In this document: in pieces, positions 4,325-33,466 of the stretch | Layout: each line of letters starts with the position of its first letter | How positions within the stretch are numbered: position 1 is the first letter of the stretch | Source: Takakia lepidozioides | Lineage: Eukaryota > Plantae > Bryophyta | Assembly: GCA_030704615.1 (NCBI GenBank) | Contig: CM060733.1 | Span: 16,802,001-16,866,000, forward strand | Direction: 5' to 3' | DNA length: 64,000 bases | Notes under the pieces: model-generated | What the model was told of the DNA's origin: nothing | Database searches by the model: none | What the model saw: only the letters and a program-made list of their open reading frames with translations | Translations under genes and position numbers: made by a program

Positions 4325-5158
4325 ATGGAGAGCAATCAAGTAGCGGTGGGTTTGAATTTGGACTGGGCAAAGATTTGGGAGGACTTTGCAGGTGGGATGT
4401 TGAAGCCTGTGCTGGCGCTTTGCGTGGTAGTGGTAGCGATTGGTGTCTCATACTCTCAACGGCTTGGAATTGAGAGTGAGATGGCGTACTCCATCGCCCG
4501 TGCCTTCATACAACTCTCCATTATTGGGTTTGTCCTGGAGTTTATCTTCAATCAGTCCAATGTGGTCTGGATCTTTCTGGCTTATGCCGTTATGGTCTCA
4601 GTGGCAGGCTACACCTCAGGAAAGCGCGCTAAGCATGTACCAAATGGAGGGTATGTGTCGACAGCAGCCATTTTTGTTGGCACAAGCTTCACCATGGCTC
4701 TGTTGGTGGCATTGAGAGTATTCCCATTCACACCACGTTACATTATCCCAGTAGCAGGCATGATGGTTGGTAATGCCATGACTGTGACAGGCGTGACCTT
4801 GAAACGCATGCGAGAAGATATGCGGCTGCAGCAGGGATTGATTGAGACAGCGTTAGCACTTGGGGCCACCCCCCGGCAGGCAGCGTTTAAGCAAGTTCGG
4901 CGGGCTCTTGTTGTAGGTCTTTCACCCACTCTTGATAATGCAAAGACAGTTGGTCTGATCTCATTGCCAGGGGCAATGACCGGTCTCATTATGGGCGGTG
5001 CCTCCCCTTTGGAGGCCATCCAGCTCCAAATTGTTGTCATGAATATGTTGATTGGGGCATCCACCTTCAGCGGTGTGTTGGCTACCTATCTGAGCTGGCC
5101 CTTTTTCTTCACCAAAACTTACCAGCTTGAAACCAAGGTGTTCATGGCTGAGAGCTAG
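4325..5158 (+). CDS. ALS3: ALUMINUM SENSITIVE 3 / STAR2-like UPF0014 ABC transporter membrane subunit, 277 aa, intronless
   Basis: Hydrophobic multi-pass ORF with family motifs RAFIQLSIIGFVLEFIF, PRYIIPVAGMMVGNAM, ETALALGATPRQA and KTVGLISLPGAMTGLIMGGASPLEAIQLQIVV. Confidence 0.93.
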   Translation: MESNQVAVGLNLDWAKIWEDFAGGMLKPVLALCVVVVAIGVSYSQRLGIESEMAYSIARAFIQLSIIGFVLEFIFNQSNVVWIFLAYAVMVSVAGYTSGKRAKHVPNGGYVSTAAIFVGTSFTMALLVALRVFPFTPRYIIPVAGMMVGNAMTVTGVTLKRMREDMRLQQGLIETALALGATPRQAAFKQVRRALVVGLSPTLDNAKTVGLISLPGAMTGLIMGGASPLEAIQLQIVVMNMLIGASTFSGVLATYLSWPFFFTKTYQLETKVFMAES

Positions 5159-6175: not shown

Positions 6176-8137
6176 CTAGTTCACTATACGGCAATTCCTT
6201 CGGATCTCTCCTTGAGAGCCTGTCAAAGCGCCAATGCTCGCCATTTTCACCATAGACCTCGCAAAAAATTTAGGGAAGGGGAAATTCGGATTCACACTTT
6301 GGATTCGAATCATGTTGTGTGCTTGGGGGTCAGTAAGAAGAGTTGCATCTGACTCAAGAAGTCCTCTATTGTTTAGAACAGCATGAAAGTATTTATTGTC
6401 AAATTGTCCTGGGGTGTACGGGTCCATGCCGATCAATGTGGCAGAACTTCCAGAAGGGCATTTTGCCTTGAGCTGGGGGACGTAGGTAGGGTCTAGAGAA
6501 GGGTCGGAATCTCCAATCCCCGTAAAATTATAAAGTCTCTTCTGTAGGTTAACACAATGCGTATTGCCAATTGTGTGTGCACCTGCATTTGTCCCAAATC
6601 CATCAAGAGATGAGTAAACAAATATACTAAGGGTTGTTGCAGCAGATTCCGAACATAGATTTCTTAAACGTCTGATTTGATGACATAGAAGGATCAAGGA
6701 GAGCACTGAGACCAGTCTTGACAGATATCTATGATCTAGTAGAGCCCATTGATTTGCTTATATGCGACATCCAAAAACTTTAAATCTAGACTTTCCAATG
6801 TTACGTTCTATGGTTTTGTAGAGTTCTTTGAAACATTCCTTGAAGGTTTTATGAGAATGTATTCCGCTAGATCTTTGATGCATGCGAGTACATGCAACAG
6901 TAATTACAAGCATGCAGAAACTCCATAAGTCATCTTGTATCGGTGTGCACTATACCTGAAAGGATGACAAGGTCATCTGCCCCAAGACCTTTGTTTTGGA
7001 AGCTCTGGAGAAGTTGTGAATAGTTCGCTGTGGCAGGAGGCAGGTTGGCCGTAGCTTCAGTTGCCAGAGAGACTCTGCCGTCCATACGACCAGTCGTAAC
7101 GTTCCATAAGTACTCGGCCGTACAGACCTGCACATGCACTATCGATCCGGTTAGTATTGTCAACAACTCGTAGGTCCTAAAGTTGTGGCAAACTTCCAGG
7201 ATACATTACTCTTTCTCTATGAAAATATGTAATCCATCCACAGCGTCAACCTGGATAATCATACGAGGTAATCTCATTTCACAGTTGAAAGCTCTTATCT
7301 CTCTATCCATGTGACCTGTGTGATTTGTGAAAACCTGCTTACAAACTTGGTTGAGCTTGTAAATTTACCAGGGAAAGGGCATCTCGAGCTACAAGAGCAA
7401 TAATATCAGCGCACGATACAATATCAGGGCACACATTCTCCACAGCTGTCTTGGCAGCATCAATCACTTCGAAGCCACGTAGCGAATTTTTGTTTATCGG
7501 TGCGTCCTTCTCCGCACTGTTGGTGGGTGTTGAATCGATAAGGACGGACCCATCCGCCCCCTGTACGTGCAAAAACACTTCTTAAAAGTTAGTGAAGAGT
7601 CATTTGGGCACTGTTTTTTCGAAATAAGACATCATCGTCTACGTTCGTCATAAATAATCATGCACACTTTTTCGAGTCAGGTCGAGCTTCCACAGAGCTT
7701 ACGCACCCAAATACTTCTGGACACCTTGCATGAAGTATATAGGATGAACAAAGACAATCATGATTGAACTTTAACTATATCAGCTCTAAAAATACAAGAA
7801 TAGGACAATTAGAGATTGGTCATTGGAAATTTGCTGAAAATAAATGCTTATCCACCAATGCACACACCCCAACAAAAGCATCGTGAAATTGCAGTCGCAG
7901 AAGTGAAGCAGCGAGTGTGGGGTCAGCCGAGTAGGCTGTTTTCGTGGCAGCGTAAATCAAATTCTCTGCCTGAGGACAAGATCTCTGGTAAAATCCAACT
8001 TGCAGACTAGGAGGTCCTGGAAATTCAGCATGGACTCTGCCACGACCTCTAACGTCCATAGAAATCACTAGTACAAGGATCATTGATAGTATTCTGAATG
8101 TGCACGGCGGTATTATCTTTGTTGTGTTGCTCGCCAT
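6176..8137 (-). CDS. Class III secretory peroxidase; exons 8137-7868, 7560-7369, 7127-6956, 6582-6176
   Basis: LQVGFYQRSCP, distal RLQFHD, VSCADIIAL, GRMDG, proximal LSGAHTIG, FDNKYF and GEIRRNC. GT-AG introns lie at the three canonical positions and exon 2 is 192 bp. Confidence 0.93.
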
Positions 8138-9389
8138 GATGATCAATGGACTTTTTGGCGTTGTGGTCTCAATATAAGGTCAACTGATTCTGCAGTTTCC
8201 ATCAACTTATTGTTATTAAAAACCACCACGATCCAACGTTATGTACCTTAAAAGAAAAACTCTCGACCTGTACAATATTGTCTTATGAGAGTCTCACAGA
8301 TCCGAGCTTATACTTAGAAGGTGCCAATATGAGCTGAAAATGTTGAGTCTTTATGCAAATCCACCATCCTTTTTATATGAAGAAACTCGTAGACTTTCCT
8401 CGACACATCGCTAGACTATTTATCGAATTTTATGACCGCCTCCATTGTTTCTATTTTCATTTGAGAGTTGATTCGACCACATTCTCCACTTTTGGTTTGT
8501 TATGCATTTTGCAGGGAACCTCTTGTAGCGGAGCCGCTCCATTTTTTTTTTTAGTAGGGAAACACCTGGGAGCCACATCAAGAGAGTTTGCCATATTTCG
8601 CCACGTGGCATGTCTTCTCGGCTAGAGCCCGTCCAATATTTTGAAAAAAGGTATCTTGGAAAAATAGATAGGGATAAATAGCATCCATTGTACCTACCGA
8701 GATACCTTTTTGGATGAGACGTGGTATCTTGTGAGAACAGCGTGAGCATGCTCACGTGAGCACAACCCACGGTCATAGGGGTTAAATGTTTTCAAACCAC
8801 GGTCATAGGAATTACATGTTAATAGGCATGGTGCACATGAGTACCTTCAGTTTTATTTTCTCAGTGCGAAAATAACTTTTCTAGGGCTTAAACTGCCGAT
8901 ACCCGAACTGAAAACCACGATTTTTGTTTTTCTGGGGTTTTCTGGGGTATCCAGTTCGCATAACGTGAGGAAACCCCACGCCTATAGGGTAACATGTTTA
9001 TCGTGTATAGGTGTTACTTGTTTCTTAAGTGATGCCGTGAGGGCCTATGTGAGCAGTTAAAAAAAGTTTCGCAAAGTTTTTAGTGTCTCAATTTTAGTTT
9101 CACTGGAGAATATTCGAAAGGCATCTAGGAAATATCCTTAATATTTGCTTGTGCTCAGGTGAGCATGTTCACGTGCTACCCAACCTCTTTAGGGAGTTTT
9201 ATAGAGAAAATTATTTAGTATATAAAGGGAAACAATTGGGAGCGACAGCTCACAAATCAGGCCCCTTAGTTATAGTGAGGCGAGAAAATAACCTATTTCA
9301 CAGTAACCTCACCGTAAAGGCTTTCGTATGGGACACACACCCAAGGGAAGGGGTATAGAGCATGTTGGGCGGATCTACCCCTTTTTTTC

Positions 9390-11649: not shown

Positions 11650-14600
11650 AGTTGAATAGTTTGCCAACCCCATGAAAGCACGAACTCTGCTTACATCTAT
11701 GGGGTGTGGAATGCGTGCAATGGCCTCTACCTTTGTCTGTTGAACACCCAATCCTCCAGGGTATATCATGTGGCCCAGATACTCAATCTGATCATGGAAG
11801 AACTTGCACTTTCCAGGGTGCAATTTCAATCCTTGCGCCCTCAAGTACTCAAACACCACCTGAAGGTGTCTCTCATGCTCCTCAACCGTGGCACTAAAGA
11901 TGATGATGTCATCAATGTAGCACCGGGCGAAGTCTAGCCCTGCAAGAATCCTATCCATGACCCTCTGAAACTTTGCAGGAACATTCTTCAACCCAAATGG
12001 TAGGAAGCGCCATTGGTACAAACAATCCTTCCCATGCTGGTCAATCCCCCAGAAAGCCGTCTTTTGCTTGTCAGCCTCTTTGATTGGTAACTGGTGATAA
12101 CCTGATCGTAAGTCCAATGTGCTAAACACCTTCGCATCCCGATGACATCAAAGATTTCCTCTGGAGTTGGCATGACATATCTATCGGACTTAGTCTGACG
12201 GTTCATAGGACGATAGTCCCCACACATCCTTCTTTCTGTCTAATTGCCATAGATATCCTTCTTAGCTGGCATCACCGTTGCCGAGGGTACTCCCCGCCTG
12301 ACAACTCCACCAATCCAGCTTCAAACAACTTCATAGTCCGTGACTGGATCAAAGACCTCTCCATGTCACTATACATGTAGGGCCTTCGAAAAATTGGCGT
12401 ATCACTTGCCAAATCAATACAAATCTCCTGACCCTTCAAACTCCCCAAATCCTTCAAACCGAAGGCAAAGCAATTTCTATAAGCCCTTAGAAATCGCTGG
12501 ATCCTCCGTCTCTCTCCTCCGGTGACTGTAGGTCCAACATCTGGTTCCCAATTGTTCTCAATGACTGCAACCTTGGATACACCAGGCTTGGAGGTAGGAG
12601 ACACATCCTTTGGTTGCTAGGTAGCAACCTCTTGGGCCTTGTTCACCCACCCTAACTGTGGCATAGCCTCCAATTGCTCCGCCTGCATAGCCACCTTGAA
12701 AACGTCCTCCGCGCAAGAAACATCCTCAACCTCTTCAAAAACCTTGGCCACCTTGGCCTCCAACTGATCCTCCATGTATGGCTTTCCCCACTCTTCATAT
12801 TGCTCCTTGAGAGATCCAATGACTCTCTCTCTCCGCATCTCATCCCACATTTGCCATGGGTGTTTGCACCCCACGATCCTGTGCTCACCCCCACTCACTG
12901 CCTCAACTGTCCCAGTTGGCAGGGAGGATGCACTATCCAATGGGAGTGCCCAAGTAGCCACCACTGCTTGCAATCTCCGTTGCTCAACCATGCACAAGCC
13001 AATGACCCATGTCAAGCAATTTAGATTCATTGCTTGACCCAACACATGTCGGCGTGATGCCTCTGATAGAGCTGGCACAGCTGTAGTGCCCGTGGCAAAC
13101 CCCATTTCCCGCTCTCGCTCATCCGCATTGGGCTTAACCAATTTCTGTAGCACATTGTCCCAAATCAACCCTGGACCATTGTCTCGAAAAGCATGAGACG
13201 AGGAAAAACTCATGAGTGTAGGCAAGGCCGCACGTGGTTGCCGCACTCGATTGATCGCCGCCAAAGGTGGACGATCATCATGTCGCACTCTCTGTGGTTG
13301 CCTCCCTTGGTCTAAAATGCCCTCAACCATGAGGTTGGGTGGCCGTTGAATGGAATCATTGGCTCTCTTGAGCAACTCTGGTGGTGCAAGATTGGTCCAC
13401 CACAACCTAGGCCTATGTGCCCGTGAACCCACTGCAACTACATCCAACAATACAGTTACAGTTGGTCCAATCCATGACCGAATCTGATGTACACTGGCCA
13501 TAACCCTGGCCCAAGAATCCCCCATGAGAGGAACATTCTCCAGGATGTAAGCTGGAGGTTGCACTTGCCTCACCTGCAAGTCACGCAACACTCGCAGCAT
13601 TTCTCAAAAACAGATGCGATCATGCATCACGCAAACCATTACCATGACCTGCGGGAGAATGTCCTTGGCAAGGCCACCCTCTTATCACCAAGTCAATGGG
13701 ACCATACCGATCCAAATTCTCTGCCCTTAGCATGGTAATGTCTGCTGGCAAGGCCTTTTGGTACCCTTGAATTGCTGAGAGAAGCAACAACTCAGGATAC
13801 TGATGTGTGAGCAAGGCAACATGGCACATGGAAACACGTCGAGCAAATTTCATCCTTCTCCACATACAAATACTTACGTACTTTGATTCTTGCTTGCAAC
13901 ACTCCTGCAAGCCTAGTGTTCATGCCTCCAAACAGGTCTAGCAAACAAATGCTTGAGTCAGGTTGTTGCCAGATAATAGACACTGTGTCCAATGGAGCTA
14001 ACTGAGGAGGTCCAGGTGATGTCACTGAACTCCCCTCATCTACCGATGGAAAGGCCTCCTGCCATGCTTTCTGCACACACTGACTTGTCACTCACTGCAA
14101 ATCCCCAACTGTACCCCACAGTGAGCTATGCACAGGAACATGAGGAAGCAACTCAGCCTTGTATGCCAATTGCTTGTCCTCATCAGATGGTGGCCTATCA
14201 TCTGCATGGCTATTTCCCTCCAAGAGCTCACCACCCCAAGCCACCACACCTGAGAATGCAGCCAATGTTGGCATCATGTTCCTATGATCCACCGCTACAT
14301 TCCCAATAAACCGCACTGGGAGCAGTGCACGTCGGCCATCCCCTAACTGCCACTCTGGCCTACATTAGGACGTCGTTTCCTCCCAAAAGTCCAGAGTAAA
14401 TTCCATTGGGTATAACACAGTCCCACCAATAAGCACATCATATGACATTGCGTCCATAACAATGGCTTTAGCTCTCATGACTGAGCCATCCGTAGGATGA
14501 TTTGGCTGCAATCGAATGAAGAGCTCATGGCGTGTAATCCCTCGCGCCTTCTCTGAACCACCCAAAGATGTTTGAATTTGGAAAGGGCAAGGCTCCAAGT

Positions 14601-17050
14601 CCGCCTCTGTAAGGCCCAAGCCTGCAATTGTTGCTCTCCCCAACATCAATGGTTGTGCTCCCGAGTCCAACAAGACCCGCAGTGGCCTATACCTCCTCTT
14701 GGTTGGGCCACCCAATTGAAACACTCCATCCTGATTGTCCACCAGGACTACACCAGGAGTCACCATGTTGCGCTCAATGGCTGGCCTAGCTGACAACTCC
14801 TGTAACCTTGCAGCTGCCGCTTGCCATGGCGCAGCTGTGGCTGACTTCACCCTTGAATCCAAAGCATCCATAGACTGTACCTTATCTGCTATCTCCGTAG
14901 ATAGTGCCGATGCATCACCACTCTCACAGAGTCTAGCTGCTAGTCTGAACACAGCAGCTGGCCGAATCCCTGACATTGCAATGGTCATTGCAGAAAATAA
15001 TGGAGCTTGACAAACCACCATAGCCGCCCCCAACAATGTACTGGTTGCACCTTGTTTTGCAGCACCACCCACTAGCATTTCCCGAGCCACACCAACTCTC
15101 CCCAATGACACTCGTGGCTCTACCTCTGACACACTTGGGTGAGCGGCACTACAGCTTTTACGTCTCTATGTTATGACTGCAAATGCAGTTATGGAAGCCA
15201 TTTACGACTTCCTGACTCTGAAGACGTAAAAGCCTAGTCAGTTGTGACATGGCAGATATGACTCTCCAGGCTGGCTGTGACATGGCGCCTGAGCAGCTGT
15301 GGGGGTAGTCATACACGCTGGCTTTACTGAATGACTGAACGGACAGTGTAGTCCATGTCAGCGGCTGTGCAAGAGTGGCACATGCTCGATACAGGAAATG
15401 ACACGTGGCAGAATGTTCGCTCTCCATGACTGCGAACTATGACTACGGGCGTGCTAATCCGGTTGCATCACTAAATTTTTTTTTTGGATAGTATCATCAA
15501 TTTGTTTTTGGGTCATGGACTTTCATGGAGCAGGATCTGCCGTTTTTGGTCCACTTAACCCTGCAACTGCCCATACATGCAATGGCCCTACAAGTGCGGC
15601 TCCACTCATGAAGCCCATACCAATCTGATCTTCCCTAGGCATAGGAGGTTGTGAAGGTGGGGCTTGAACCTCAAGCCTTGGAGCTAATTGACCCTGACCC
15701 TGTGCTCTTTGGTTTTGGTTACGACCTCCACCCTGACCTCTGCCTCCTCTACCTCTCTGGACTACATTGCCTCGTCATCGGCCACCATTGTTCCCTTGGA
15801 ACTGGCCTGGCCGTAGCTCAGGATGCAAGCCATAACAATGGGCCTCCTCATGCCCATACTTGCCACAATGCCCACACTGTAGTTGTATAGGCTGTGTCTG
15901 TGCCGACCCTTAGCCTCTCTTCGGGCAATCCTTCTTGACATGGGGTCCTCCACAATCCCAACAAGTTACACCCGACTGTTGTTGGCCTGAGAATGAAGGA
16001 AGAGACCTCTGCATCTGAGATCCTCTCTGTCCTTCCCTAGGCTTTGCCTGAGCCCCCTTGTTGCCTTGAACTCGTTGGGGTAGTGGTTGTTGTTGGTTAG
16101 GATCCCCACTTCGTTGTGTCTCCTTGCCAAACCCCACCATAACCACTCGCTCCTCCACCATATTGAGCTCTATCCGCTCTGCCAGCAAAAACACATTTGT
16201 TAAGGTGGGTTGGTCCACTTGTAGGAAAGTTGCATCCCGCACCCTTCTCCTCAGCTCCTTGTCTAATATCCCATACCAGAATTGGACTGCCTGAGCTTCC
16301 GTAACCCCTTGGGTTACATTTATCAAGCGTCTCATGCGCGTATAAGCCTCCCTCAAACTCTCAGTAGGCCTTCGTTGGAACTCTTGCAAGCTCTGCAACT
16401 TCTCTGTCCTTATCCCCTTGTAGTTTCTCCTCAACTCCTCGAAGAACTCCACAACTGCGTTAAAGGCAGGCACGGCTGCTGGTGCTGCAACATGAGCTTG
16501 AGTGGATTTCCCAGCTCCTGTATCACTTGTCCTACTACTAGTGCTTGCAGTTGGGGATGTTGGTGTAGCTGCTGGTGTCGCCACTGCTCTTGTGCCTTTG
16601 GTGATGGAGATATAGTCAGGTGACCAATACTCCCGCCATTCCTCAGTCTCCACCTCATGTCCCCGCCAAAACTCATGGTAATCATCCATGGGCGGCCCCT
16701 CAAGGTGCTGAAACATCCATTTCCACGCCATAAAAGGTGTAAACAGTTGTGGATTGCGCATCTGCTGCAAATTACACCAACTATCAAAGTCCTGTACGAA
16801 ATCATCAAGCTCGATGACGCCCACAGCTCCAGAATACCGGCGTGGCCCCTTGGTAGCTCCATATATTTCCTCCATCATATCCCACAACAATGGCAAGGAA
16901 ATGGCTTGCACCCTCGGCGAGAAATCCTCCTGACTCCGAGTCTGAACCTTCCTCAGAAGACACTGGTGCCTAAACCGCACACCTCGTCTTGTGTACCCAC
17001 TAGTATCGCTGGTGCCTGTACCGGCACTCCCCTCATCAACTGGTGGCACC
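11650..17050 (-). mobile_element. Ty3/Gypsy LTR retrotransposon, 5' half: gag-PR-DNMT-RT (degenerate, truncated after RT)
   Basis: Gag with zinc knuckle CWDCGGPHVKKDC (15910-17049), aspartic protease LLDSGAQP (14365-15132), C5-MTase domain, and RT with LDLRSGYHQ, PFGLKN and YIDD (11647-12604). Confidence 0.92.
13010..13975 (-). pseudogene. DNMT3-like C5 cytosine DNA methyltransferase domain embedded in the Gypsy pol (frameshifted)
   Basis: Motifs in order: I LLDLFGG (~13930), II YLYVE, III DI, IV DLVIRGWPCQG (~13680), VI ILENV (~13535), VIII RAHRPRLWWTN (~13400), IX EREMGF (~13105), X RRHVLGQAM (~13035). Confidence 0.88.
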
Positions 17051-19657: not shown

Positions 19658-20022
19658 AGTGATAATGAAAGTGAACATAATGGAAACACACCACTCATGA
19701 ACCACTCAATCACATAAACTAAGTCAAGCCAAGGGCACCCTTGCTAAGGGAATCCACCCTACAAAGCCCTCACCACACTCCGTCTCAATACCTAGAGCTA
19801 TGGAGGTGAGAGAGACTCATGGAGGCTCAACTACAAGAATATGAGCCTCCTCCATTCTCACAAGGGGAAAAACTATCCCCATATCCCAAGTGAGGCTCGA
19901 CACCTCACTTGGCATGTGAGACCAAATAAAGTCCCAACACACAAATATAAATATAAATATTTAAAATGTCCTAGTTAACTAGAAGTAGGTAATTCTAGAT
20001 AACCATGACTAAAACCATGACA
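19658..20022 (-). repeat. LTR 5' end (TGTCATGG...), inverted copy of 44240-44603
   Basis: About 365 bp is near-identical to the reverse complement of 44240-44603. It begins TGTCA on the minus strand. Confidence 0.8.
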
Positions 20023-20358
20023 CGACGCGTACTTCCTCGTCTGGACCCTGTACGACGGCAAGTGGAGCCTACTCGAAGTCTGATAATCCTGTTGGAGATT
20101 GAGGCTTCGAACCCAGAGGGCAACGAAATCATGTTTGAAGGCAGCTTCGAAAATCAGAATACTCAAATCACTGCGTGGTCCCAAGTTCAAGGTGATGGAC
20201 ACTATCGATGGTTGCAGGGACTTATAAATCATTTGAGTCAAGAACAAAGAGCCGAATACTTGACAAGTACCAAACGCCGGATTTTGGATTTTCTCCAACT
20301 CTAAGCAAGTCCAAGATTTTACCACTCCTCGAGGAACTTGGCGCTAGAGGAGTGGTGA

Positions 20359-20987
20359 TGTCACGGACATAGCCCAGAGGACCTTACCAGGAGTAAATAC
20401 CAGAAGTTACCAAGTTATCAAAAGTTATCATAATTTACCATAATTTACGATTATCTATCATGATTTACCATAAGTTACCATAAGTTACCAAATTACCGAG
20501 AGTTTATCAAATTACCGAGAGTAACTTGGGAAACTATTCATGAAGCTTCATTTGGAGGAAACTTCTTCATCAAGATACCTCATTTGTTTAAAGAAACTTT
20601 TCCATCAAGAAACCTCCATTGGGGAAGCTTCTTAGGGAAGCTTCTTAGGGAACTTCCTAGTAGCTAGTATATATAAAAGACGGGACTGGACACTCCTAAG
20701 TCTCGCCAACACAAGTTCAAGCTACTCTTATTTCTAGTCCCAGTACTCCAGTTCAACTTCTAGTACTCTAGCCTAGTTTCCAGTATCTGGCACTCTAGTC
20801 CAGTTCCCAGCATTCCAGTATTCAAGTCAAGTTCCAGTATCTTGTACTTTTGTCCATTGTTATAAAGATCATCTTGATTCCTGTTTACCCATCATGCATT
20901 CGGCCACGCCGACCTTGACTTCTTGTCTAGTCTTGTACCTCTAGTCTGATCTCTTGTTTGTGTTCAGTCATGCTCTCGTCCTTGACA
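20359..20987 (+). mobile_element. 3' LTR of a different LTR retrotransposon, preceded by a polypurine tract
   Basis: PPT-like AGAGGAGTGGTGA, then TGTCACGGAC ... GTCCTTGACA terminal inverted ends. Internal TATATAAA (~20669) and TTACCA(T)AAG repeats. Confidence 0.7.
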
Positions 20988-21317
20988 CTCACTATAACTA
21001 AGGGGCCTAATTTGTGAGCTGTCATAACATTCTAGAATTAAACGTGATATGTGATAGCATTGCTATCCATTAAACGAGTAGAGTTTGAAGGCTGGGAGGA
21101 AAGGAAGGTGAATGTTTATATTCATATGCATGAAGAGCTTGTACTGGTAAAGAATTGGATTCCAAAGGATATTCTGTGGATCAAACTCACACCAAGAACA
21201 GCTTTCCAGACTTGTTTGTCATATGGTAGTCTGTGTGTTAGTATAGTATAGTGAGAGTTAGTAGCTGGTCGTTATAGGTTTGGGCTTCGTTTAATTGGTC
21301 TTAGATACATTAAATAT

Positions 21318-22886
21318 TGGCAGTGGGAAGAGGAGCATGAGCAAGCCTTTGAGGAACTCAAGGCTCGGTTGACTTCTGCGCCTATTCTGAGGCGACCTAT
21401 TTGGGGGCGGCCTTTCTAGCTACATACGGATTGGAGTATGCTGGGGATTGGAGCAGTGCTCACATAGGTGGATGATGAGGGAAGAGAGTTCGTAGTGGCA
21501 TATGCTAGCCGCTCGAACAATGATGCCGAGGCGAAGTATAGTTCCTATGAAGCGGAGTGTCTAGCTGTAGTATGGACAATGACACATTCTAGATGCTACC
21601 TCTATGACAATCTCTTCACCCTTGTCACGGATCACCAACCATTGAAGTGGTTGATGGAGTTAGACAAGCTTACAGGGAAGCTTGCACGGTGGGCACTTAT
21701 GCTTCAAGAGTACAACTTCCAGGTGGTGCATCGAGCCGGAATAGTTAACCAGGATGCGGATGGATTGAGTTGCAATTCATGCACAAGTGAGCTTGATGAT
21801 ACAGGAGCTCGTTGGCATGGTGAGACGGACGAGGAGATGGTACCAAGATGACACGCATCTGCATTTTTATGCATTCTAGCAATGGGAGCTCAAGCTGGTC
21901 CATCCCATGTGATTGGTCATGGAGATAGTGTGCAGTGAGGAGCTTGGTGGTGCTAAGGATATGCATGAAGATGCATCAGTGTTGGCCTACCTTCGTACTG
22001 GAGAGACAACAGTCAGTGTGACTGCTAAGGAGAGAGATCGGATCCTACAACGAGTCAAGAGGTTCAAGTGGGAGGGGACTCACCTACTCCGAGTATGGCA
22101 GGATGGACGAGTAAGGATTGTGCCTCATCCAACACAACGAGCACGATTGGTACGATGCCCATGAGGAGTTGGGACATTTTGGGGTGCGGCACACTCATAG
22201 TTTGCTGCAATGACAGTATTGGTGGCGGGGCATGCACACGGATGTACAACAGTTAGTGGCAAGGTGCATGATGTGTGATAGAGTGCGGGCTTCTTTCAAT
22301 GCAACTACTCCACAATTGCATCATTTACCTATTATGGGTTTGGGCTATCATTGGAGTCTTGACCTCGAAGGCCCATTGCTACTAACGATTCGTCATAACA
22401 AATATGTGCTGGTGATAGTGAAACATTTCTCCAAATGGATTGAACTGATGGCATTGCCTGACAAGGCAAGTGAGAGGGCTGCGTATGCATTCTTAGATTG
22501 AGCATTTAGCCAATTTGGTGCTCCAGTCAAGGTACTCACGGACCAGGGGAGAGAGTTCTTGGGGGAGTTTCAAGCTTTATGTGAGCAAGCCTTGATAAAC
22601 CACCGCACTACTTCACGGGATCATCCCGAGGTTGATGGCTTGGCGGAGAGAGTTGTTCAAACAGTCAAGAGGGGTTTGCGCAAGTATGGTTTGCAGAAGG
22701 GACACTTGGGAGATTGGGACCTTCAGCTGTCTTGGTTGGCTATGGGCTATAGATTCAACAAACAAGCGTCATTTGCCTCCTTCTCACCTTACTTTCTTCT
22801 CTTCGGCCGAGAGCCAGATTTGTCTGCATCTATTCGCAGGGAGGCTGCAGTAGTCCTTGACCTTGATGATCCGGATGTGTGGACAC
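21318..22886 (+). mobile_element. Gypsy RNaseH-integrase region (degenerate), interrupted by a hAT insertion
   Basis: [46 protein letters not shown] / C..C zinc finger, VLTDQGREF and GLAERVVQTVK. Confidence 0.9.
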
Positions 22887-23079
22887 CCTGGTTATCAGCG
22901 TCATGTCCGTCCGTCAGCGTCAGGTCACGTCAGACCTGACGCTGACGGAACCTCCGTCACGTCAGGTTCGGGGAATATTCTGTTAAAAATAGTAGCAAGT
23001 AAAATACTGCCAATTAAGCAGCCACGTCGCCGACACGGTGGCGGTGATAAATACATTCTGAAAATTAACAAAATGAACG

Positions 23080-23910
23080 CGACCGCCAATTATTGCGGTC
23101 GCTTTGTTTTTCAAAATTAAAAAAGAAATAGCGACCGCCATATTGGCGGTCGCTTCAATTTTTTATTTTTTTTAAACAAGATTGGCAGTTGCACTGGCGG
23201 TCGTTTTATTTTTCGAATTAAAAAAACAAATAGCGACCGCTATCTTGGCGGTCGCTTCAATTTATCTTATAAAAAAAACAAGATTGGCGGTCGCATTGGC
23301 GGTCGCCTAATTTTTAAAAAAAACAAGCGACTGCCATATTGGTGGTCGCACAATTTTGTAAATATGTACAGAACAAGCGACCGCCATATGACGGTTGGAT
23401 AATTTCAAAAATAAAAAATAAAAAATAAAAAATCTGCGACCGCCATTGGGCGGTCGCTTAATTTAAAAAATATATAGAAAAACAAACGACCGCCATATGG
23501 CGGTCGGTAAGTCGCATCAATTTTAAAATATATATTAAGTTTAAGTGACCGCCAGCCTGGAGGTCGCTTAAACTTGAAAATATAAAGATTAAAAGCGACC
23601 GCCATATTGGCGAGTCGCGTTTTTTTTTAAATATTAAAAATAAAAGCGAATACCATATTGGCGGTCGCTTTATTTTAAACATATTAACAAATGAAGCGAC
23701 CGCCATACCGGAAGTCGCATTATATTTTGAAATAAAAAACAATAGCGACCGCCATACGGGCGGTCGCTTAAATTTAAAAATATACAAAATAGAAGTGACC
23801 GCAATATTACACAAAATGAAAGGAAATAAAAGCGACCGCAATAGTGACGGTCGCTTGTTTTTCATAAAAAATAAAAATATCGACTGTAGTATTAGCGGTC
23901 GCTTGATTTC
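23080..23910. repeat. Left array of GCGACCGCC-N-GGCGGTCGC palindromes with A-rich spacers
   Basis: More than 10 palindromic units visible. Confidence 0.9.
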
Positions 23911-24389
23911 AAAATTACAACAAATATGGTTGTATAGCCTTTTTCGGGTGGGCGCTATTGGTTCGTAATTTTTTTATTTCACTTTCATTTCACTTTCATC
24001 CTTCTTGGATCATATATAAGGGAGGAGGGTCACCAAGCTCCTCAATTCTTTTGGCGCAAACACTTGAGGTTGCTTTGGATGTTCTCTTCCATTGAACGAG
24101 AGTGTAGCCCAAGAGGAGGGTGCGCACCTTTTGCCGTTGTGGCTTCCACCAAAGCCACTTTAGCAGATTGTGTATAAGCTCAACACTACAACCCACATCG
24201 ACCCACTTGGGTTGCTGACAAGTGTAGAAATGTCGGGCTATCGCATTGCACTCTACATTCACAACACGTTCATTTATAGGTGACTGTTTTTTGTTGCTTG
24301 CATCACTAGGTCCCAGGGAAGTGGATATTGGGTGAAGATGATGGAGGAATGAAGCCCTTGGTATACGGTAATCCCGAACACTGTCAGTG

Positions 24390-27231
24390 TCACTGGTAGT
24401 GTTGAGTACAACCTATGTGGATTAAAGCTTTCTTATCGTAAGGATCGGTTGCTCGCTCACCTCGGCTATAAAGGTGTGAAGAGCGCTGAGGTAGGTTTAT
24501 GCCCTAAAGCATCTATGCGGGTAAAAAACCATTTTATCCAATGTGGAGGCAATATTCCAATGTCTTTGGATCTGGACATGACCTCTGAGCAGAACACTCT
24601 ATCTTCCTGTCAGGATGCCCCGATTAGTACCCAGGGTGACTCTTGTGAGGCATCGGGTGTCCTTGGATATGTGGGTTGTGCCGGAGCAACACCTGTTTCA
24701 ATACCTCTTTGTACCCCTACACTTCAGCGGAGTAGAGGATTACGACAGCAATCCATGCAAGAAGGTCTTAACTTGTCTGCGAAAAGACAGTTGGATAAAA
24801 AATGGGCGCAGTTTTTCTTCGAGGCCAACATACCATTTAATGTGGCAAGGCTTCCTACATTTGTTTCTGCCGTTAAAGCAACCTCGGAGTCCAGATTCAC
24901 GTACGTGCCTCCGACTTATCACAATCTCCGCACATGATTGCTAGAAGACGCCATGACCGAGCTTACCCAAAAGGACAACAATAGGACGGGCGAGTGCATC
25001 AGAAAATATGGAAGCACTATATGTACCGATGGTTGTAGTTCTATTACAAAAAAACCATTGTTCAATGTCATGCTCGTATGTCCAACTGGGGAACAATTCT
25101 TGGGATCGGTCGACACTAACGGCGATAAGAAAGATGGACGTTATCAATGCCAACTATTGACGGACTTCATCGAACAGGTCGGAAGTGATAGAATCGTGCA
25201 AATATGCACAGACAATGCCGCTAACATGATAAACACTGCAGACATGTTGTTGGCACGTTATCCCCATATGTACTATCAAGGTTGTGCTGCTCATATCCTT
25301 GACCTCTTTTTGGAAGATTGGGGAAAAGAACAGTGGGTGAAACAACTTGTCAAGCGAGCGAAGACTGTTGTGTCGTTCATCCGCACACACCACATCCCTT
25401 TGGCAATATATAGGAGGCACGAACCCAAATACAGCCTCCGCAATCCAGGCGAAACTCGTTTTGTCACTAACTTCTTGATGGTGGATCGGTTGGTGACAGT
25501 GAAGAGCAGTCTGGAGCACACCATCATCGATCCTCAATGGGATGCCTACAAACGGACATTGCAGAACTCCAGAAAAGCCAAGTCATTGGGCAAAAGTCGA
25601 AAAGTTCAAAATAGCATTCGCAGCGATGATTTCTGGAAGAAATGTGAAAACTTTGTTTATATGGTAGAGCCGGCGTTAATCGTCTTGCGGGAGTTTGATG
25701 GAAAGCAACCAGTAATGGGCAAGGCATGGTTACTAATGCAAAATCTTGATAAGCACGTCCAATCCTTGAGGCATCATCCATTCTCCTTGGAACCTAAACT
25801 TGTGGACAGTGCTGAGGATGCATTTTACGACCGTCGTTCGATGGTTCGAACGGACTTGCATTATGCGGGGGCTTTGTTCAATCCATTCTTGCTCGACAAT
25901 ACCGTGCTCCGAGACGACGCTGATGCCAAGGCCGGCCTCGTGCAAGTGCTCATGCGACTGGCTCTGCCGAACCATGCAGAGAGAGCTATATCCGAGTACC
26001 AATGCTTCTTAGATCGCCGCGACCCTTTTGAGGACATGCCGGATCCAAAAGAGCTCAATATGTTGCCACATGAATGGTGGGATCTGATTGGAGCTGGAGC
26101 AAGAATATTGGCTCCTATTACAAAGCGTATTCTTGCTTAAGTGTGCTCTGCCTCATCTTGCGAACGCAATTGGAGCAGTTACTCATTTATTCACAACAAG
26201 ATTTGCAACATATTGAATCCCGCGAGGGCTGACAAATTGGTGTATGTGTATACCAATTGCCAACTACTACGTGAGAGGGCAGCGGATGATGCTGCAGCAT
26301 GGTATGAGAGGAATTTGCATTCCAAAAACTCTGTTTCTGAGGCTGATTCGATGAGTGATGATACTGAGCCTTAGAGAGAATCATCTCAGAGGGAATCACC
26401 TGCCTCCAATAGTGAAGATGGATCCGATGATGCTCCCAAAAATGCGTATGACCCGTTTACATTCACAGAGGAAGATGCTTATATCCAGCCGACCTTTGAT
26501 GACCTTCTTGAAGAAGGTCCCCAGAACATGGTCCTCAAAATGAAGTTGAGGTCGACCCTCGTCCCCCACTACACGCTGAAGCCACTGGTAGTGCCCCAAT
26601 GGAGCTTAGGGGTGATATACTGCCAGGACCGATCGACGTATGCAACCTTGTTCATACAAACGATGGTGTCGAACCCATTGTACAGTCGACGGGATGGGAT
26701 CATGTCTCACCAATACGACCAGCTCTACCACAATGTCAAAACCGATCCAGCTCCCCATCAACACAGCGGGCATTAAGGAGCAACAGGGTTGATCTGTTTT
26801 CCACACGCACGCATCATTCTGCTGCATTGGACCTGTCACTACAATTCCACCTTAACCAACGTGTTGCGCAGCAGACCCGTGGTTCCTCACATGTCGAACC
26901 ATCTAATGCCGGTCCATCTCGGGCAGACCTTCCTCCGGTACCTCCTTCGAGACCACCTTCGATTGCGTCCCAAGTCCATAAACGACAGATAACAGTCCAA
27001 CCTTTTGTAGACGATCGGCCTACAAACAGGCCAGATACCGTGGATAGTATTCAAGACCGGAGTGGGAGTCGACCTCAGAGAGAACTAAATGTAGCTCGAG
27101 GTCGCTTGCAGATTCAAAGGCCTGGACATATGAGGTCGGATAGGGTGGACGATTCCAGCACTGATTATGGCAACGGTAGTGAAGTCGAGGGTGACCTGGA
27201 TTTTCAACCCATCGGAGCATTAGGATTATGA
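24390..27231 (+). pseudogene. hAT transposase (BED remnant, DUF659-type core, C-terminal dimerisation domain), with in-frame stops at 24935 and 26138 and a probable low-complexity tail
   Basis: LCG..RLLAHL, FFFEANIPFNVA, TDGCS, QICTDNAANM, CAAHILDL, PGETRF, EWWDLIG, SASSCERNWS and KLVYVYTN. Confidence 0.9.
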
Positions 27232-27534
27232 TCTTCTTTGTCCCGTCGTCGAAGCAGTAGAAGGAATTGAAGCAAAACAGTTGAAGGCATGCATCAACAC
27301 ATTTTAGTGGACATGTTTATATTTCTGTAGTGAAGTAATATCAGTGTGATCATTGTCACTATGAGTATTTGTATTGCTGTTGTGTATGTGCTGGAAAATA
27401 AAAGATGTTGCCCATGTGTATACCAGACAAAATGTCGGCCAAAGGCACCGTCACTTGCTCATGTTTGTATTCGGTGATTTGTTTGTGGAATGGAAAACAA
27501 TTGTGTCATGCTTCCAACTGTGCATTCATTTTTA

Positions 27535-29170
27535 TTTAAATGGAGCGACCGTCAAGGTGCCGGTCACTTCTACGAGGTCTGCCCTGCGCGTGGAGCGAGG
27601 AATGGGGGGGGGGGGGGCGGCATATAAGTTCCCAGTCATTCTCCCCGACCGCCATTTATGGCGGTCGTTGTAATGGTTATTTTTAAAAATGCAGCGACCA
27701 CCATTACTTGCGGTCGCTTTTATTTTCTTTATTTTTGGAAATGGGGCGACCGCCATTTCTGGCGGTCGTTTTTTTTAAAAAAATAGAGCGACCGCGAAGG
27801 TGGCGGTTGCTTCTACGAGGTCTGTCCTGCGCGTGGAGCGAGGAATGAGGGGGGGGGGATATACATGGCGGTCGCTTTTATTTTATTTATTTTGAAAATA
27901 AATGGCAATAGCTTTTATCTTAATTATTTTGGAAATGAAGCGACCGCTAGTAATGGCGGTCGCTTCTATTTTAATTATTTTGGAAATGAAGCGACCACCG
28001 TTACTGGCGGTCGTTTTTTTGCTTTTTGGAGGAAAATGGGGCGGTCGCCGCTATTGTTGTTTTTTGTAATTGCAGCGACCGCCATTAGTGGCGGTCGCTT
28101 TTATTTAAGTTTGGTTGAAAATGGAGCAACCGCCATTTGTGGCGGTCACTTTTATTTTAATTGTTTTGAAAATAAAAATGGAGCGACCGCCAAGGTGGCG
28201 GTCGCTTCTACGAAGTGTGCCCTGCGCATCGAGCGAGGAGTGAGGCGGGGGGATGGGGCATATAAGCTCCGACTCATTCTCCCCTCACTTCCATTACAGG
28301 CGGTCACTTAAATGCAGCGACTGCCATTATTGGGGGTCGTTGTAATTGTTCTTTTTTAAAATGCAGCGACCGCCGTTTTTTTTTTTTTTTTGGGCGAAAT
28401 GGAGCGACCGCCATTTGTGGCGGTCATTTTTTTTTGTTTTTAAATGGAGCAACCGCCAAGGTGGCGGTCGCTTCTACAAGGTCTGCCCTGCGCGTGGAGT
28501 GAGGAATGGGGGGGGGGCATATAAGCCCCCAGTCATTCTCCCCTCACTTCCATTATTGGCAGTTTTTGTTTTTACAAAATGCAGCGACCGCCATTACTGG
28601 CAGCGCTTTTATTTTTTTATTTTGGAAATGGGGCCACCGCCATTACTGGCGGTCGTTTTTTAAAAAAAATGGAGCGACCGCGAAGGTGGCGGTCGCTGCT
28701 ACGAGGTCTGTCCTGCGCGTGGAGCGAGGAATGAGGGGGAAGGGGGGGGGGGGATTTACGTGGCGGTCGCTTTTATTTTGGAGGAAAATGGAGCGACCGC
28801 CATTAGGGGCGGTCGCCGGTATTGTTGTTTTTAGGCGGTCGCTTCTCTATATTTTGGAGGAAAATCGAGCGACCGCCGCAATTGTTTTGTTTTTTGTAAA
28901 TCCAGCAACCGCCACTACTAGCGGTCGCTTCAATTCTTAATGTCTCCGTAAATGTAGCGACCGCCTATGTTGGCAGTCGCTTATTTATTTCATTTTCGGA
29001 AAATGGAGCGACCGCCAATTCTGGCGGTCGCAGTTTTTTTATTTATCCGGAAAATGGAGCGACCGCCAAGTTGGCGGTCGCTTCTAGAAGATTCGCCCTG
29101 CACGTGGCCCGAGGAATGAGGTGGGGGGGGGGATATAAGCCAAGGGAGGCTTATTCTCTCCTCACTTCCT
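27535..29170. repeat. Internal array of the same palindromes (T-rich spacers) with ~6 higher-order units ending CTGCGCGTGGAGCGAGGAAT-G(n)-ATATAAG
   Basis: Units at ~27577, 27818, 28215, 28478, 28703 and 29093. Confidence 0.9.
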
Positions 29171-29453
29171 CTCCACACAACTTCTGTGTGCGTGGCATTT
29201 CATTATTCCACGACACGTAGTCACGTGGAGAAGGAGGCCATTGGTTGGGTGGGGGGTATTTTTTGCCGCGATTTCTGTGAGGTCGTTGCAGAATGCCCCA
29301 TAGGCCCTCCTCTGGCTTCCAGGATCATTTTATTCTACAAAATTAGCTTTTAGGAACTATTTTGACACCTACTCAAACCTACTTAACGGAGGAAGGGTTT
29401 AGAGTTACGTCTTATTATAAAACCTCGTTTAGTGTTGCTCCGATTGTTGCAGA

Positions 29454-31396
29454 ATGGCAAAGGGCCAGTACGATGACCATCATGGAAGAGATGACCCCAA
29501 TGAACAAGGACCGCCTCCTAAGAAAATCAAATGGTCAAGGCAAGGCTTGAATTGGGAAGTATATGGTGACCCTAGCATACCAACAGAAGAGGGCTGGGAG
29601 GATGTTCCGGTAGAGTTCCGGTGGCCGATGGCGAGATGCAAAAAATTCGTGAAATGGTACCACATCAATCGATTGTGGCCTTTGGATAGGCATGACGTTC
29701 AAACCCGAAACAATTACGCAGAGTCCAGGTCTTGCACGAACTTGCATTTCCAACATAGGGCGAATGAGGTACATTGCACATTGTGGGGTCAACCTCTCTT
29801 AAAGGGCCAAACCCCGTACACCTTGGCAGTCATGTTGTACGTGGAGGTCATACTCTTGTGTCCAGTGAATTGGCAAACTGCTAGTAGGAGAAACACAAGG
29901 TTGCTATACGATTTGGAGTACATCTCGGACACGTTCGGAATACAACCGGCTGCAACGTTAGAGGAACAACTGGTGGAAAGAGACCAGTGAATCAGGACCC
30001 TGCAGGACCGACTAGACTGACAAACACTGCGCATAGCCGACTTGGAAGCTAGATTGCAAGACATGTCTCCAAACAATGAAGATATTGTTGTCTACAATGA
30101 GGATCGAACAAATGTCGTGGACATGGACGCGGAGTTTGCGATGCCCGATCGTAGTATTGACCTCATCATTCACGAAATTACGGACGTCCTTGACCCTGTG
30201 ACCGATGAAACCATGGTTGAGGAACAGCGAATTGCGGATGAAAGAAGGAGGAAAGGAAAAGAACCAGTACTGGAAACCGGGGAATGCTCGAGGGTCGTCA
30301 TTCAATCGGAGATGAACCCGATGTTAGATGTCGACCGCGTTACAAAGGAGCGGAATATTGTCATGGCAGCTGCATGGCGTTTGTCCAAAACGCTAGAGAT
30401 TCGGGCATAGGTCCCATGGAATGGCGATTGGGAAAATTGGGTACAATGGGCGACCCATTTGGCCTCCAGAGAAGCACGGATCCGCATCGCATCAAGCGTG
30501 TTCGCCGGATTGGGCAGATGTGGATTTTATGTTCGATCGATATGAGCACATAATTTCGGGGTCGAACAGAAGCATAAACTGGGAATTGAAGATAGAGGAA
30601 GAGTGAGACACCACAACAAGGATGACCAGCCACATCAAACCGGCCCAGAGGGAGGAGATACCACGAGGCGTTTTGCCGTCATGGATATCAGATGACACAG
30701 TTTGTTCGATGTGTAGGAATCCATACGGCCCAGAGGGATGTCATGTGCTTCGATCATGTGGACATATGTTCCATCTCACATGTCTTATCCTGCAAGCCTT
30801 GCGGACGAACGCTTGCCCAGAATGCCGTACACCAATCCATCGTCGTTTCTATGAACTGGGGGCTTGGAGGATCGGATACCCATAGGTTTTGAATACAATC
30901 GACACAACCTCCCATTGGATGGGATACCATACACATTTCTGAATTGTGTGCATTGGGGCAAGAACTTGGTATGGGGATGCAGACAGAGAGATGCATGACA
31001 TACATGCCGGAAACCCGGCATACATCAAAGATCCCCAGTATTTCTGGGTCACATCTGACTGGGAGATAACCATACGTGCGGGAGGCATTCGAGATTGGTG
31101 GGAGAGAGAGCAGTTTTGCTGCAATCAAGGGAGGGCATTGGAGTCAAAGAAGGTCCAGGTTTATCTGGCTCCCACAGGTTCCATCGGTGCCGGAGGAGAA
31201 CGAGTTGTATGACCGACAACCGATTTGGAGACATTTGTTGCTGTCCGAACTGGAAAATGCTATAATATGTCAACGCCGAATGAATGAGGCGTACGAGGCG
31301 GCTTATCGTCGAAATGACACAATGATTATGGACAGGGCCCGCGAGAGGCAATTGGAAAGTTTCAAAAGTACCATCATAGAAGTTGTAGAGAAATAG
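29454..31396 (+). pseudogene. hAT cargo gene: unknown N-terminal domain, coiled coil and RING-H2 finger (multiple stops and frameshifts)
   Basis: Collinear ORFs 29454-29990, 30042-30410, 30421-30606, 30622-30885, 30946-31212 and 31076-31396. RING-H2 CSMC-x-CGHMFHLTC-x-CPEC at ~30703-30830; NLS-like PPKKIK. Confidence 0.72.
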
Positions 31397-32140
31397 AGGC
31401 GACTATGGACAGACCGTTATCATCATGTTTCGGGGGCTCTATTGCCGACGTGGACGGCCTCGTTGCCGATTTGCATACAGCCCGAGCACTTGTTCTCGAT
31501 CCACCTCCACCACGTCGTAAGAGTGAAGAAGAAAGTCAACTTTCGCCGCGAAGTAGGCGGATGTAGGCCAGAATTGATCACATGTCATTGGGACCCTCAT
31601 TGACCACGAGATCACGGTCGCAATCTCTGGCAATTGGCAGTGCAAATCAAGCCACAACATCAAATTCCTTGTCCTCGGACAGTAATGTCTAGGCTTTTAA
31701 TGACTGGCAGCGTAGTACATATACAATATGCATTTTTGTTGTACCTTGAATATTGTTGGAAAACACAGTGATGGCATTCCGCCAATTTTGTATATTACTA
31801 ATTTTGTTAATACACAATGCACATGTGTGACACCTGCCAATTTCAATTGCATGAGCAGTGTTTTCTTCACATTTACACTCGTGTGTTGGGGAAGAAGTAG
31901 TTCACCCTATAAACAAATTTACAATGGTGTCATATGTGGTCATGACGTGTATGTGGGTATTTGCAATTAACTCCGAAAGCTGGAAAACAAGGAAAATTGA
32001 TGTTAACCAATAAGTTATAACGAGTTACGAACGGTCGTCTTCCAAACAAATTTTCGCCTGGTCCCTGCGTATTTCATTATCATTTCGCAAAATCTATGAT
32101 CTTTCTACGAACATACCCACAAAGTTCTCAAAGCACAAAA

Positions 32141-32530
32141 TAATTTCAATTGATCTCATATTACACTGGCACGTATCAGATGGTACATTGAACACACTAA
32201 CCAAGTTTCAAAGCGAACGAAAATCATTTGGATGGGCAACCATCCGTTGGCCCATTGAATGAATTTCGATTGATCTCATATTACCCTGGGGCCTCTTACA
32301 TGGCACATTAAACATAGTGGCCAAGTCTCAAAGCGAACCAAAATTATTTCGATGGCCAACCATCCGTTGAGCCATCGAATGAATTTCAATTGATCTCATA
32401 TTAGTCCAGGACCTGATACATGGTATGTTGAACATAATGGCAAAGATTGAAAGCAAACGAAAATCATTTGGATGGGCAACCATTCAATCGCCCGTTGAAT
32501 GTATTCCGTTGGATCTGCTATTGCTTTGGG
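32141..32530. repeat. 120-bp tandem repeat (~3.3 copies) plus a dispersed copy at 33161-33264
   Basis: AATTTC.ATTGATCTCATATTA starts at 32142, 32262 and 32382. AAGCGAACGAAAATCATTTGGATGG recurs in each unit. Confidence 0.85.
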
Positions 32531-33276
32531 ACCTGTTGGACTGTGTTTCGCGTGCTCACGATTTTTTTTTCATTTTATTTTTCAATGGGGCGTGTAATGT
32601 AGCCATATGCAACGTGTGTGCCAAATTTGGGAGCGATCAAAATTCATTCGGACCCAAAACCACAATTTCTTCCCTGTTTTGCACTCCAAATTTGATTTGT
32701 GTTCTACTGCATGCACTCTTCATAAAAAGAGTTCTGCAATAGTGAGCGAAGAGAACACTTTTTCTTAGGGGCATTTTTTATTGGTCCAAATTTTGGCGGG
32801 GGAGTAGCGGTGGGATGTTGGAAGCCGCAAAACAAAATTGAGCCAAAAACAAAATCGATACGTGCCAGAAACCCCCAATGAAAGGCAGTGCAAACCTATT
32901 TATTGGCTTAAAATAAATTAAATTAAATTAAATTGTGGAATGACTTGAGAGGGAGCGCGTCGATGGGGAGGCAAATGATTTATTCGTCTGTTGTGTCTCC
33001 ACACATGTGTCGCACACATGTGCAAGCACATGCGGGCAAAAGAGGGGCTTCAACCGCATCCGTTCAATGGGTGCAATAGCCGTGCACGCATTGCATGATT
33101 TCTTTTTCGCATTGAACAAAAACCAAATGACAAGTGAACGCCTTATTAGACAATTGAACAAATTTCGATTGATCTTATATTACACTGGGACGTATCAGAG
33201 GGTACATTGAACACACTGGCCAAGTTTCAAAGCGAACGAAAATCATTTGGATGGACAACCATCTGTGTCCACTTTA

Positions 33277-33466
33277 TCCAATATGTTGATATTCTCCACC
33301 TGGAACAGATCCACATATGTGTGCAGAAATCCTTAAAAAAACAAATGACCATCTCTACTTTTATAAGCCTCATCCCCAGCTTCCAGTTTTGATGGTCATT
33401 TGGTTTTTTAAGTCTTTATATACACATGTGTGGATATGTTCCAGATGGAAGATATTAACATTGGAA
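33277..33466. repeat. Inverted repeat, ~75 bp arms
   Basis: CTGGAACAGATCCACATATGTG..AAATGACCATC pairs with GATGGTCATTT..CACATGTGTGGATATGTTCCAG. Confidence 0.75.

Follow-up and report, generated by a model that had tools for sequence, protein, structure and literature searches.

What is a DNA methyltransferase (DNMT) doing inside a moss retrotransposon, and how would the element make it? The question arises from a stretch of 64,000 nt from Takakia lepidozioides (CM060733.1, 16,802,001-16,866,000), here called the window, in which a Gypsy element holds a cytosine-5 (C5) methyltransferase between its protease and its reverse transcriptase (RT). All coordinates below are window positions. A Gypsy element of this kind, KnitGypsy-Dnmt3, has been described in Klebsormidium nitens, with Gypsy domains and DIRS-like A-coding-B-A-B repeats (de Mendoza et al. 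2018, PMC5890265). On balance, we favor the reading that the window holds a dead moss copy of a DNMT3-carrying, split-repeat Gypsy family, in which a conserved stop codon after the DNMT would be read through at low frequency, the DNMT packed into the particle, and the element's complementary DNA (cDNA) methylated.

Structure of the Element

Relatives of the element were collected from protein searches (P numbers) and from metagenomes (L numbers). The L loci are the best 80 of 293 metagenome loci, selected by DNMT motifs and drawn from few assemblies; a DNMT stretch is present in 77, and a 97% threshold leaves 60 distinct loci. On the minus strand of the window, from 17,064 down to 11,656, gag (with two zinc knuckles), an aspartic protease, the C5 methyltransferase, and RT follow one another, collinear and intronless. 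Across the window and its relatives, the Gypsy set of gag, protease, RT, RNase H, and DDE integrase is present in that order. In the window these parts belong to one full, dead element, running from its 5′ end at 20,022 (minus strand) to its 3′ end at 44,687 (plus strand):

20,023-20,026, minus strand: left target-site duplication, GTCG on the element sense strand, against GTCA at 44,688-44,691 (one mismatch)
19,660-20,022, minus strand: repeat A1, the element 5′ end, starting TGTCATGG; 95.3% identity to A2 over 364 bp, in inverted orientation
15,805-16,875, minus strand: gag, with zinc knuckles at 15,925-15,963 and 15,835-15,876 (PF03732, E 3e-4; 54% identity to Marchantia P0004)
14,305-14,805, minus strand: aspartic protease, LLDSGAQP at 14,650-14,673 (PF13650, E 9e-4)
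12,980-13,950, minus strand: DNMT3-type C5 cytosine methyltransferase, motifs I, IV, VI, VIII, IX, and X in order (motifs, family profile, predicted fold)
12,611-12,619, minus strand: conserved in-frame TAG (12,617-12,619), then CAA CCA, the end of open reading frame 1 (ORF1); no variants, kept in relatives
12,500-12,610, minus strand: candidate long RNA stem 3′ of the stop, arms about 12,584-12,610 and 12,500-12,523 (suggestive)
11,656-12,556, minus strand: RT, YIDD at 11,905-11,919, cut at 11,656 by the inversion (PF00078, E 4e-31; L022 ORF2 residues 22-322)
21,318-22,886, plus strand: RNase H and integrase core (PF17917, E 1e-26; L022 ORF2 residues 347-869 align to 21,318-22,894)
37,401-37,727, plus strand: C-terminal part of integrase, after the hAT insertion and cut before the PHD finger (L022 ORF2 residues 865-972 at 37,401-37,724, 64% identity)
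44,151-44,238, plus strand: repeat B1, 89.8% identity to B2 over 88 bp
44,240-44,601, plus strand: repeat A2, matching A1; the B1/A2 junction consists of the element end, two bases, and the element start
44,601-44,687, plus strand: repeat B2, the element 3′ end, ending CACGACA (end and repeat comparison)

Because GTCG and GTCA on the two flanks form a 4-bp target duplication with one mismatch and the ORF2 pieces on either side of the inversion break are complementary, we read the two halves as one insertion whose 5′ half was later inverted. An arrangement of two separate truncated copies was ruled out by the complementary break points (24 residues missing), the A1-A2 match, and the matching target duplication. 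The two A repeats of the window differ by about 5%. This copy was killed by the inversion and by insertions.

A DNMT3-Type Methyltransferase

An earlier note on this DNA had described C5 motifs standing intronless and collinear in the order gag-protease-DNMT-RT, a DNMT3-like enzyme, and a frameshifted copy. These points held. All six motifs lie on the minus strand in the order given, namely LLDLFGG (13,924-13,944), GWPCQG (13,662-13,679), LENV (13,532-13,543), RPRLWWTN (13,391-13,414), EREMGF (13,097-13,114), and LGQAM (13,028-13,042), with gag, protease, and RT flanking them. The window domain is disrupted by one frameshift near 13,849, another near 13,609, and internal stops. A match to PF00145, which the note had also expected, was obtained in part. 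Marchantia proteins, to which the window pieces are 59-62% identical, clear the cut-off at 35 bits; one of the three broken window pieces matches weakly (E 0.0016, 18.3 bits), below the 22-bit cut-off.

The kinship with DNMT3 comes from two comparisons. A family profile of six stop-free DNMT domains ranked DNMT3A/B/C first (E about 1e-18), then DRM (5e-9), and then M.HhaI and bacterial enzymes (about 1e-6), with DNMT3A/B also closest by predicted fold. The predicted structure of the intact L022 domain had a pLDDT (predicted local distance difference test) of 90, and 31 of the 31 fold matches listed were DNMT3. Judged by motif order, profile, and predicted fold, the domain is an unrearranged, intronless DNMT3-type C5 methyltransferase.

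The catalytic Cys, ENV, and RxR are retained in five of the six stop-free domains, and the sixth keeps Cys and EN. In five pairs of relatives, each with at least one stop-free copy, the ratio of nonsynonymous to synonymous substitution rates (dN/dS) was 0.125, 0.124, 0.19, 0.15, and 0.10, respectively; one close pair gave a value of about 1. By these ratios, the DNMT of intact relatives is under purifying selection. De novo cytosine methylation by the bryophyte domains is a putative activity.

A Conserved Stop Codon between Methyltransferase and RT

In the window, the DNMT and RT share one reading frame and are parted by TAG CAA CCA, which fits UAG-CAR-YYA. This is the type I (tobamovirus) readthrough motif of tobacco mosaic virus (TMV), described as effective on UAA too (PMC3542737). 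The contigs of four runs from one sample list no variant reaching 2% at 12,609-12,620, and neighboring sites were variable.

The stop is kept across relatives. Among group-I loci having both the DNMT end and the RT start, a manual count gave 31 of 32 (26 distinct) with TAG or TAA in the matching position and CAR-YY after it. An automated census of distinct loci, run with two references, found a stop at the corresponding site in 23 of 25 and 24 of 26, respectively; the mean stop rate was 1-2% per ordinary site, and the next-worst coding site reached 39%. CAR-YYA followed none of 595 decay stops. The second codon past the stop reads CCA, CCC, TTA, TCA, or CTC, so that the amino acid changes and the pyrimidine-pyrimidine pair stays constant. 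The complete UAG-CAR-YYA occurs in the window, L003, L022, L028, and L037; the Sphagnum-type subfamily has CAR-YYC. Intact L022 consists of an ORF1 of 1,369 codons, TAG CAG TTA, and an ORF2 of 1,047 codons in the same frame.

Protein records alone give a compatible picture. Five Marchantia proteins terminate 76-78 residues past the domain, consistent with the stop, and the Klebsormidium-clade proteins P0426, P0401, P0467, and P0423 all terminate 21 residues past motif X, which suggests a frame end directly after the DNMT in that clade as well.

Since the stop lies between DNMT and RT, the enzyme ends the Gag-level frame. The earlier note had placed the DNMT in pol between protease and RT. The order stands, and the assignment to pol does not: by its reading frames, the window's lineage has the DNMT closing the gag-protease frame. 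RT, RNase H, and integrase would probably be made by readthrough of this stop. Downstream of it, a long RNA stem is suggested and is taken as a lead only. Pairing between its arms is better inside each of two sequence groups than across them and exceeds that of same-spacing controls (0.5-4% of windows); against synonymous recoding, only two of seven sequences did better at 5%, and only two of six whole folds had z below -2.

Distribution of the Family

The window belongs to a land plant, as the earlier note had supposed. The STAR2/ALS3 gene at 4,328-5,155 has its nearest named relatives in Ceratodon, Physcomitrium, and Sphagnum (82-83%), and its tree places it among mosses (support 74), outside Sphagnum and Physcomitrium-Ceratodon, the exact place being weakly supported.

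A search with motifs VI-X returned 38 proteins, 15 of them plant-named (12 Marchantia, 1 Calypogeia, and 2 Sphagnum), most 49-66% identical. A profile search returned 377 proteins, of which the best 120 add Calypogeia, Sphagnum, and M. paleacea. When 20 of 150 cluster representatives were looked up, two clusters came from Closterium and one from K. nitens. The Closterium proteins and Klebsormidium GAQ93235.1 have a zinc knuckle-protease-DNMT order; the retrieved K. nitens protein carries no RT. Wherever domains were covered, and deletions aside, the best 80 of the 293 metagenome loci show the order protease-DNMT-RT-RNase H-integrase-PHD. In the window species itself, one run yielded 36-68 separate contigs that disagree with the window at three positions within the domain, so the DNMT domain is multicopy there. 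Contig depth, when summed, came out lower for the DNMT than for gag or integrase; this measure cannot rank the parts and was not used.

In a midpoint-rooted DNMT tree, which holds one K. nitens protein and no host DNMT3 outgroup, all protease-DNMT-RT elements, including the window, Klebsormidium, and Closterium, form one clade (FastTree support 0.962). A second tree, which has no supports, gave the same topology. The clade stands apart from a large group of Gypsy elements, P0025, P0032, and about 80 more proteins, in which the related DNMT follows RNase H and precedes integrase and which also have a PHD finger. L056-L080 make up a second bryophyte lineage with the same repeats, and Calypogeia P0262 groups there. 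P0201, a match labeled bacterial, sits on a 2.4-kb contig and is probably mis-binned. Phage records gave no match to the DNMT domain, and viral contigs gave weak, partial matches to ordinary methylases (30 loci).

The other expectations of the earlier note were a family residing in an embryophyte, a domain carried family-wide, and kinship with Klebsormidium elements. Named plant proteins, metagenome loci, and separate contigs bear out the second; the single DNMT clade, shared domain order, and A-coding-B-A-B repeats bear out the third. The first was right about the host and too narrow in range, the DNMT family being, by these matches, common to mosses, liverworts, and streptophyte algae rather than special to this genome. 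The family known from K. nitens now extends to land plants, and the stop is a new expression feature. In the open literature, to which our search was confined, no published account of bryophyte copies or of the conserved stop was found, nor do the passages seen of 10.1101/363937, PMC12344493, PMC9985172, PMC12885004, PMC10952607, and PMC8566409 contain one.

Repeats, Ends, and Integration

The A-coding-B-A-B arrangement occurs in the window, L044, L058, and L065. The element begins TGTCATG and ends CACGACA (TG...CA), and the three cases with both ends carry 4-bp target duplications, GTCG, AAGG, and GGTC. Together, these ends and duplications point to integrase-mediated insertion. The L022 ORFs gave no match to a tyrosine recombinase; an rve integrase and 4-bp target duplications are found instead, and the element is not a tyrosine-recombinase element of the DIRS/PAT type. 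Phygy of REXdb is described with an NCGN target preference (PMC6317226), and none of the three full target duplications has that form.

The B/A junction, in which the element end, two bases, and the element start follow one another, is present in the window and in L044, L058, L065, L023, L033, and L062. A motif search near the 5′ region and after repeat A1 found no transfer RNA (tRNA) primer site; no tRNA library was compared. Split-repeat elements can regenerate their ends independently of a tRNA. The junction would allow the same here, with the ends restored by way of B/A.

Proposed Mechanism and Alternatives

For the stop-bearing lineage, we propose that most ribosomes would make Gag-protease-DNMT and that a small share would continue into RT-RNase H-integrase-PHD. 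The protease would free the DNMT, which may be packaged in the particle at capsid-like levels and could then methylate the element's own new cDNA prior to integration. As the DNMT would be plentiful in the particle, the site of cDNA synthesis, cDNA methylation is its simplest use, and we give this step an even chance. The earlier note had raised cDNA methylation too, and with it a possible reshaping of host CG methylation. The L022 PHD finger is closest to those of CHD4, PHF12, KAT6A, and PHF21A, several of which read unmethylated histone H3 lysine 4 (H3K4). The PHD finger of intact relatives may steer integration to H3K4-unmethylated chromatin.

Several observations weigh against this proposal. 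In group II (L056-L080; 10 in-frame loci) and in Closterium P0335 and P0464, the DNMT runs into RT with no stop, so Gag-level expression of the enzyme is not universal. The stop-bearing loci amount to only about five independent subfamilies and were picked by DNMT motifs, and the commonest, Sphagnum-type subfamily has CAA CCC and then ATG, with the sixth motif base off. As described in PMC5890265, KnitGypsy-Dnmt3 carries its DNMT in the Pol frame, whereas the window DNMT ends ORF1. Over mostly decayed copies, median dN/dS was 0.54 in group I and 0.32 in group II. The element shows no extra CpG depletion (observed/expected 0.42) relative to a DNMT-less Gypsy of the same window (0.44). Motif IV of L058, from the second lineage, reads GWECQG, its proline replaced. 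The Klebsormidium domain gave no methylation in yeast, a result that its authors call inconclusive (PMC5890265).

The last three of these points are also what may be expected if the DNMT serves another job, either in the nucleus, where it would methylate integrated copies or host chromatin, or as a nucleic acid binder of little catalytic activity. Moss host DNMT3 is reported to methylate mainly CHH (PMC6453930), so the element's enzyme may target CG or another context. Against such a role stand the catalytic residues, kept in full in most stop-free domains and as Cys and EN in the remaining one, and the position of the DNMT at the end of the Gag-protease frame, which suits packaging. Related retrotransposon DNMT3s of Symbiodinium, moreover, are reported to methylate CG de novo (PMC5890265). 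We regard another job as the strongest competitor, though a doubtful one.

The family may also have reached mosses and liverworts by horizontal transfer rather than by descent from an algal ancestor, which we consider rather unlikely. No Physcomitrium, Ceratodon, hornwort, or vascular plant was among the organism-named matches (38; 120 of 377; 20 of 150), a weak negative that favors transfer, as does the finding that the window copy lies farther from the Sphagnum and Marchantia domains than these do from one another. Descent is favored by the two deep lineages, each with a Calypogeia protein and loci of Sphagnum-like assemblies, and by Closterium and Klebsormidium branching outside both. Broken copies are rarely annotated, and old paralogous lineages fit the tree equally well.

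Less likely again is that the same family, with the same stop, makes RT and integrase from spliced RNA, with TAG providing the AG acceptor, or through renewed initiation at an AUG farther on. In the Sphagnum-type subfamily there are TTTGCATAG and an ATG two codons past the stop, and Marchantia and Sphagnum database gene models (P0003, P0008, and P0021) bridge the stop region, but they do so at differing places. No U-rich tract precedes the stop in six sequences (T fraction 0.17-0.33), and the first in-frame ATG comes only at codon 81 in the window, 48 in L003, and 117 in L022. Neither route needs CAR-YY, and in intact copies ORF2 is exactly in frame with ORF1, which weighs against both.

Although an inversion and two insertions have rearranged the window copy, a one-off capture, a nested insertion, or an assembly chimera has next to no probability: the same order recurs in named plant proteins and in the best 80 of the 293 metagenome loci, and the separate contigs of the window species refute a one-off capture.

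With readthrough, packaging, and cDNA methylation as the preferred reading, a broader picture can be drawn, which we offer tentatively. An ancient streptophyte Gypsy lineage, surviving into mosses and liverworts, would produce a DNMT3 at Gag stoichiometry by means of a virus-type readthrough stop with a long RNA stem 3′ of it, methylate its cDNA in advance within the particle, replicate by its split direct repeats without a tRNA primer, integrate under PHD guidance into H3K4-unmethylated chromatin, and act as a mobile methyltransferase in bryophyte methylomes. If so, many element copies would add a mobile de novo methyltransferase to those methylomes. The position of the stop predicts both the amount of enzyme and its destination. 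The role of retrotransposon DNMTs has been in question since 2018, and the Marchantia copies, whose stop-free DNMT domains are annotated as hypothetical proteins, bring it to a model plant for which genetics, methylomes, and met1 mutants are available. Counts of DNMTs in bryophyte genomes should be read with caution, as they include transposon copies.

Surroundings of the Element

Two later insertions, both foreign to the element, interrupt its 3′ half:

22,887-37,399, plus strand: hAT DNA transposon splitting the integrase (8-bp target-site duplication; PF04937 at 24,938-26,137)
37,771-43,967, strand not assigned: CACTA-type insertion in the element 3′ region (3-bp target-site duplication)

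The hAT element is 14.5 kb long, with a DUF659 transposase at 24,353-26,137. It has arrays of a palindromic GCGACCGCC...GGCGGTCGC unit at about 23.0-23.8, 27.5-29.1, and 36.5-37.2 kb, of which the internal ones suggest a nested second element. The CACTA-type element holds decayed fragments of a PLS-class pentatricopeptide repeat (PPR) gene at 38.3-39.0 and 42.0-43.1 kb. A high-copy segment resembling a long terminal repeat (LTR) lies at 20,359-21,028 (TGTCACGG...TAACA), with a TATA box near 20,670; it is distinct from the A repeat of the element, and the final 36 bases of the segment are found again, inverted, at 9,244-9,279. Two further decayed Gypsy elements, at 61,079-63,525 and 45,584-46,307, have no DNMT detected. 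Besides STAR2/ALS3, the host genes include a class III peroxidase (6,179-8,179) and a phospholipase D (49,210-52,027).

Comparison with Known Systems

The closest known system is KnitGypsy-Dnmt3. As far as the 2018 text searched describes it, both have an intronless DNMT3-type domain in the Gypsy polyprotein region, A-coding-B-A-B repeats, a DDE integrase, and purifying selection. The K. nitens protein with the zinc knuckle-protease-DNMT order shares 39% identity with the window pieces and falls in the same DNMT clade. The two systems differ in host, here a moss, with liverwort and peat moss relatives, and in the PHD finger that ends intact bryophyte relatives, of which the 2018 text searched makes no mention. 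Passages of two later papers use "streptophytes" for such elements, the source given in one being the 2018 work alone, and a passage of a 2019 opinion paper calls such elements absent from land plants such as tracheophytes (PMC6338049).

SymbioDIRS-Dnmt3 of Symbiodinium, the element reported to methylate CG de novo in yeast, likewise joins a retrotransposon-borne DNMT3 to split direct repeats. It differs in having a tyrosine recombinase in place of an integrase, an unrelated RT class, and a dinoflagellate host (PMC5890265, as described there).

For the stop itself, the yeast elements Tj1, Tosmo1-3, Tcry1, and Tca2 are reported to set the ratio of structural to enzymatic proteins by one in-frame stop (10.1101/2022.12.06.519325). 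Theirs is a TGA directly after gag, whereas the window stop follows protease and DNMT. In codon context, the window stop resembles the TMV type I signal of tobamoviruses (PMC3542737).

Host plant DNMT3s, PpDNMT3a/b, share the unrearranged DNMT3-type catalytic domain; by the account in PMC6453930 they differ in carrying DUF3444 and in lying outside retroelements, and they are absent from the DNMT trees here. EpiLTRs/DAM-LTRs, as presented in 10.64898/2026.05.21.726589, are LTR elements that also combine a methyltransferase with a chromatin reader. Their DNMT is sister to DNMT4, is appended to pol, and is accompanied by an adenine methylase and a chromodomain, and that work calls the EpiLTR DNMT distinct from the streptophyte Gypsy-DNMT3.

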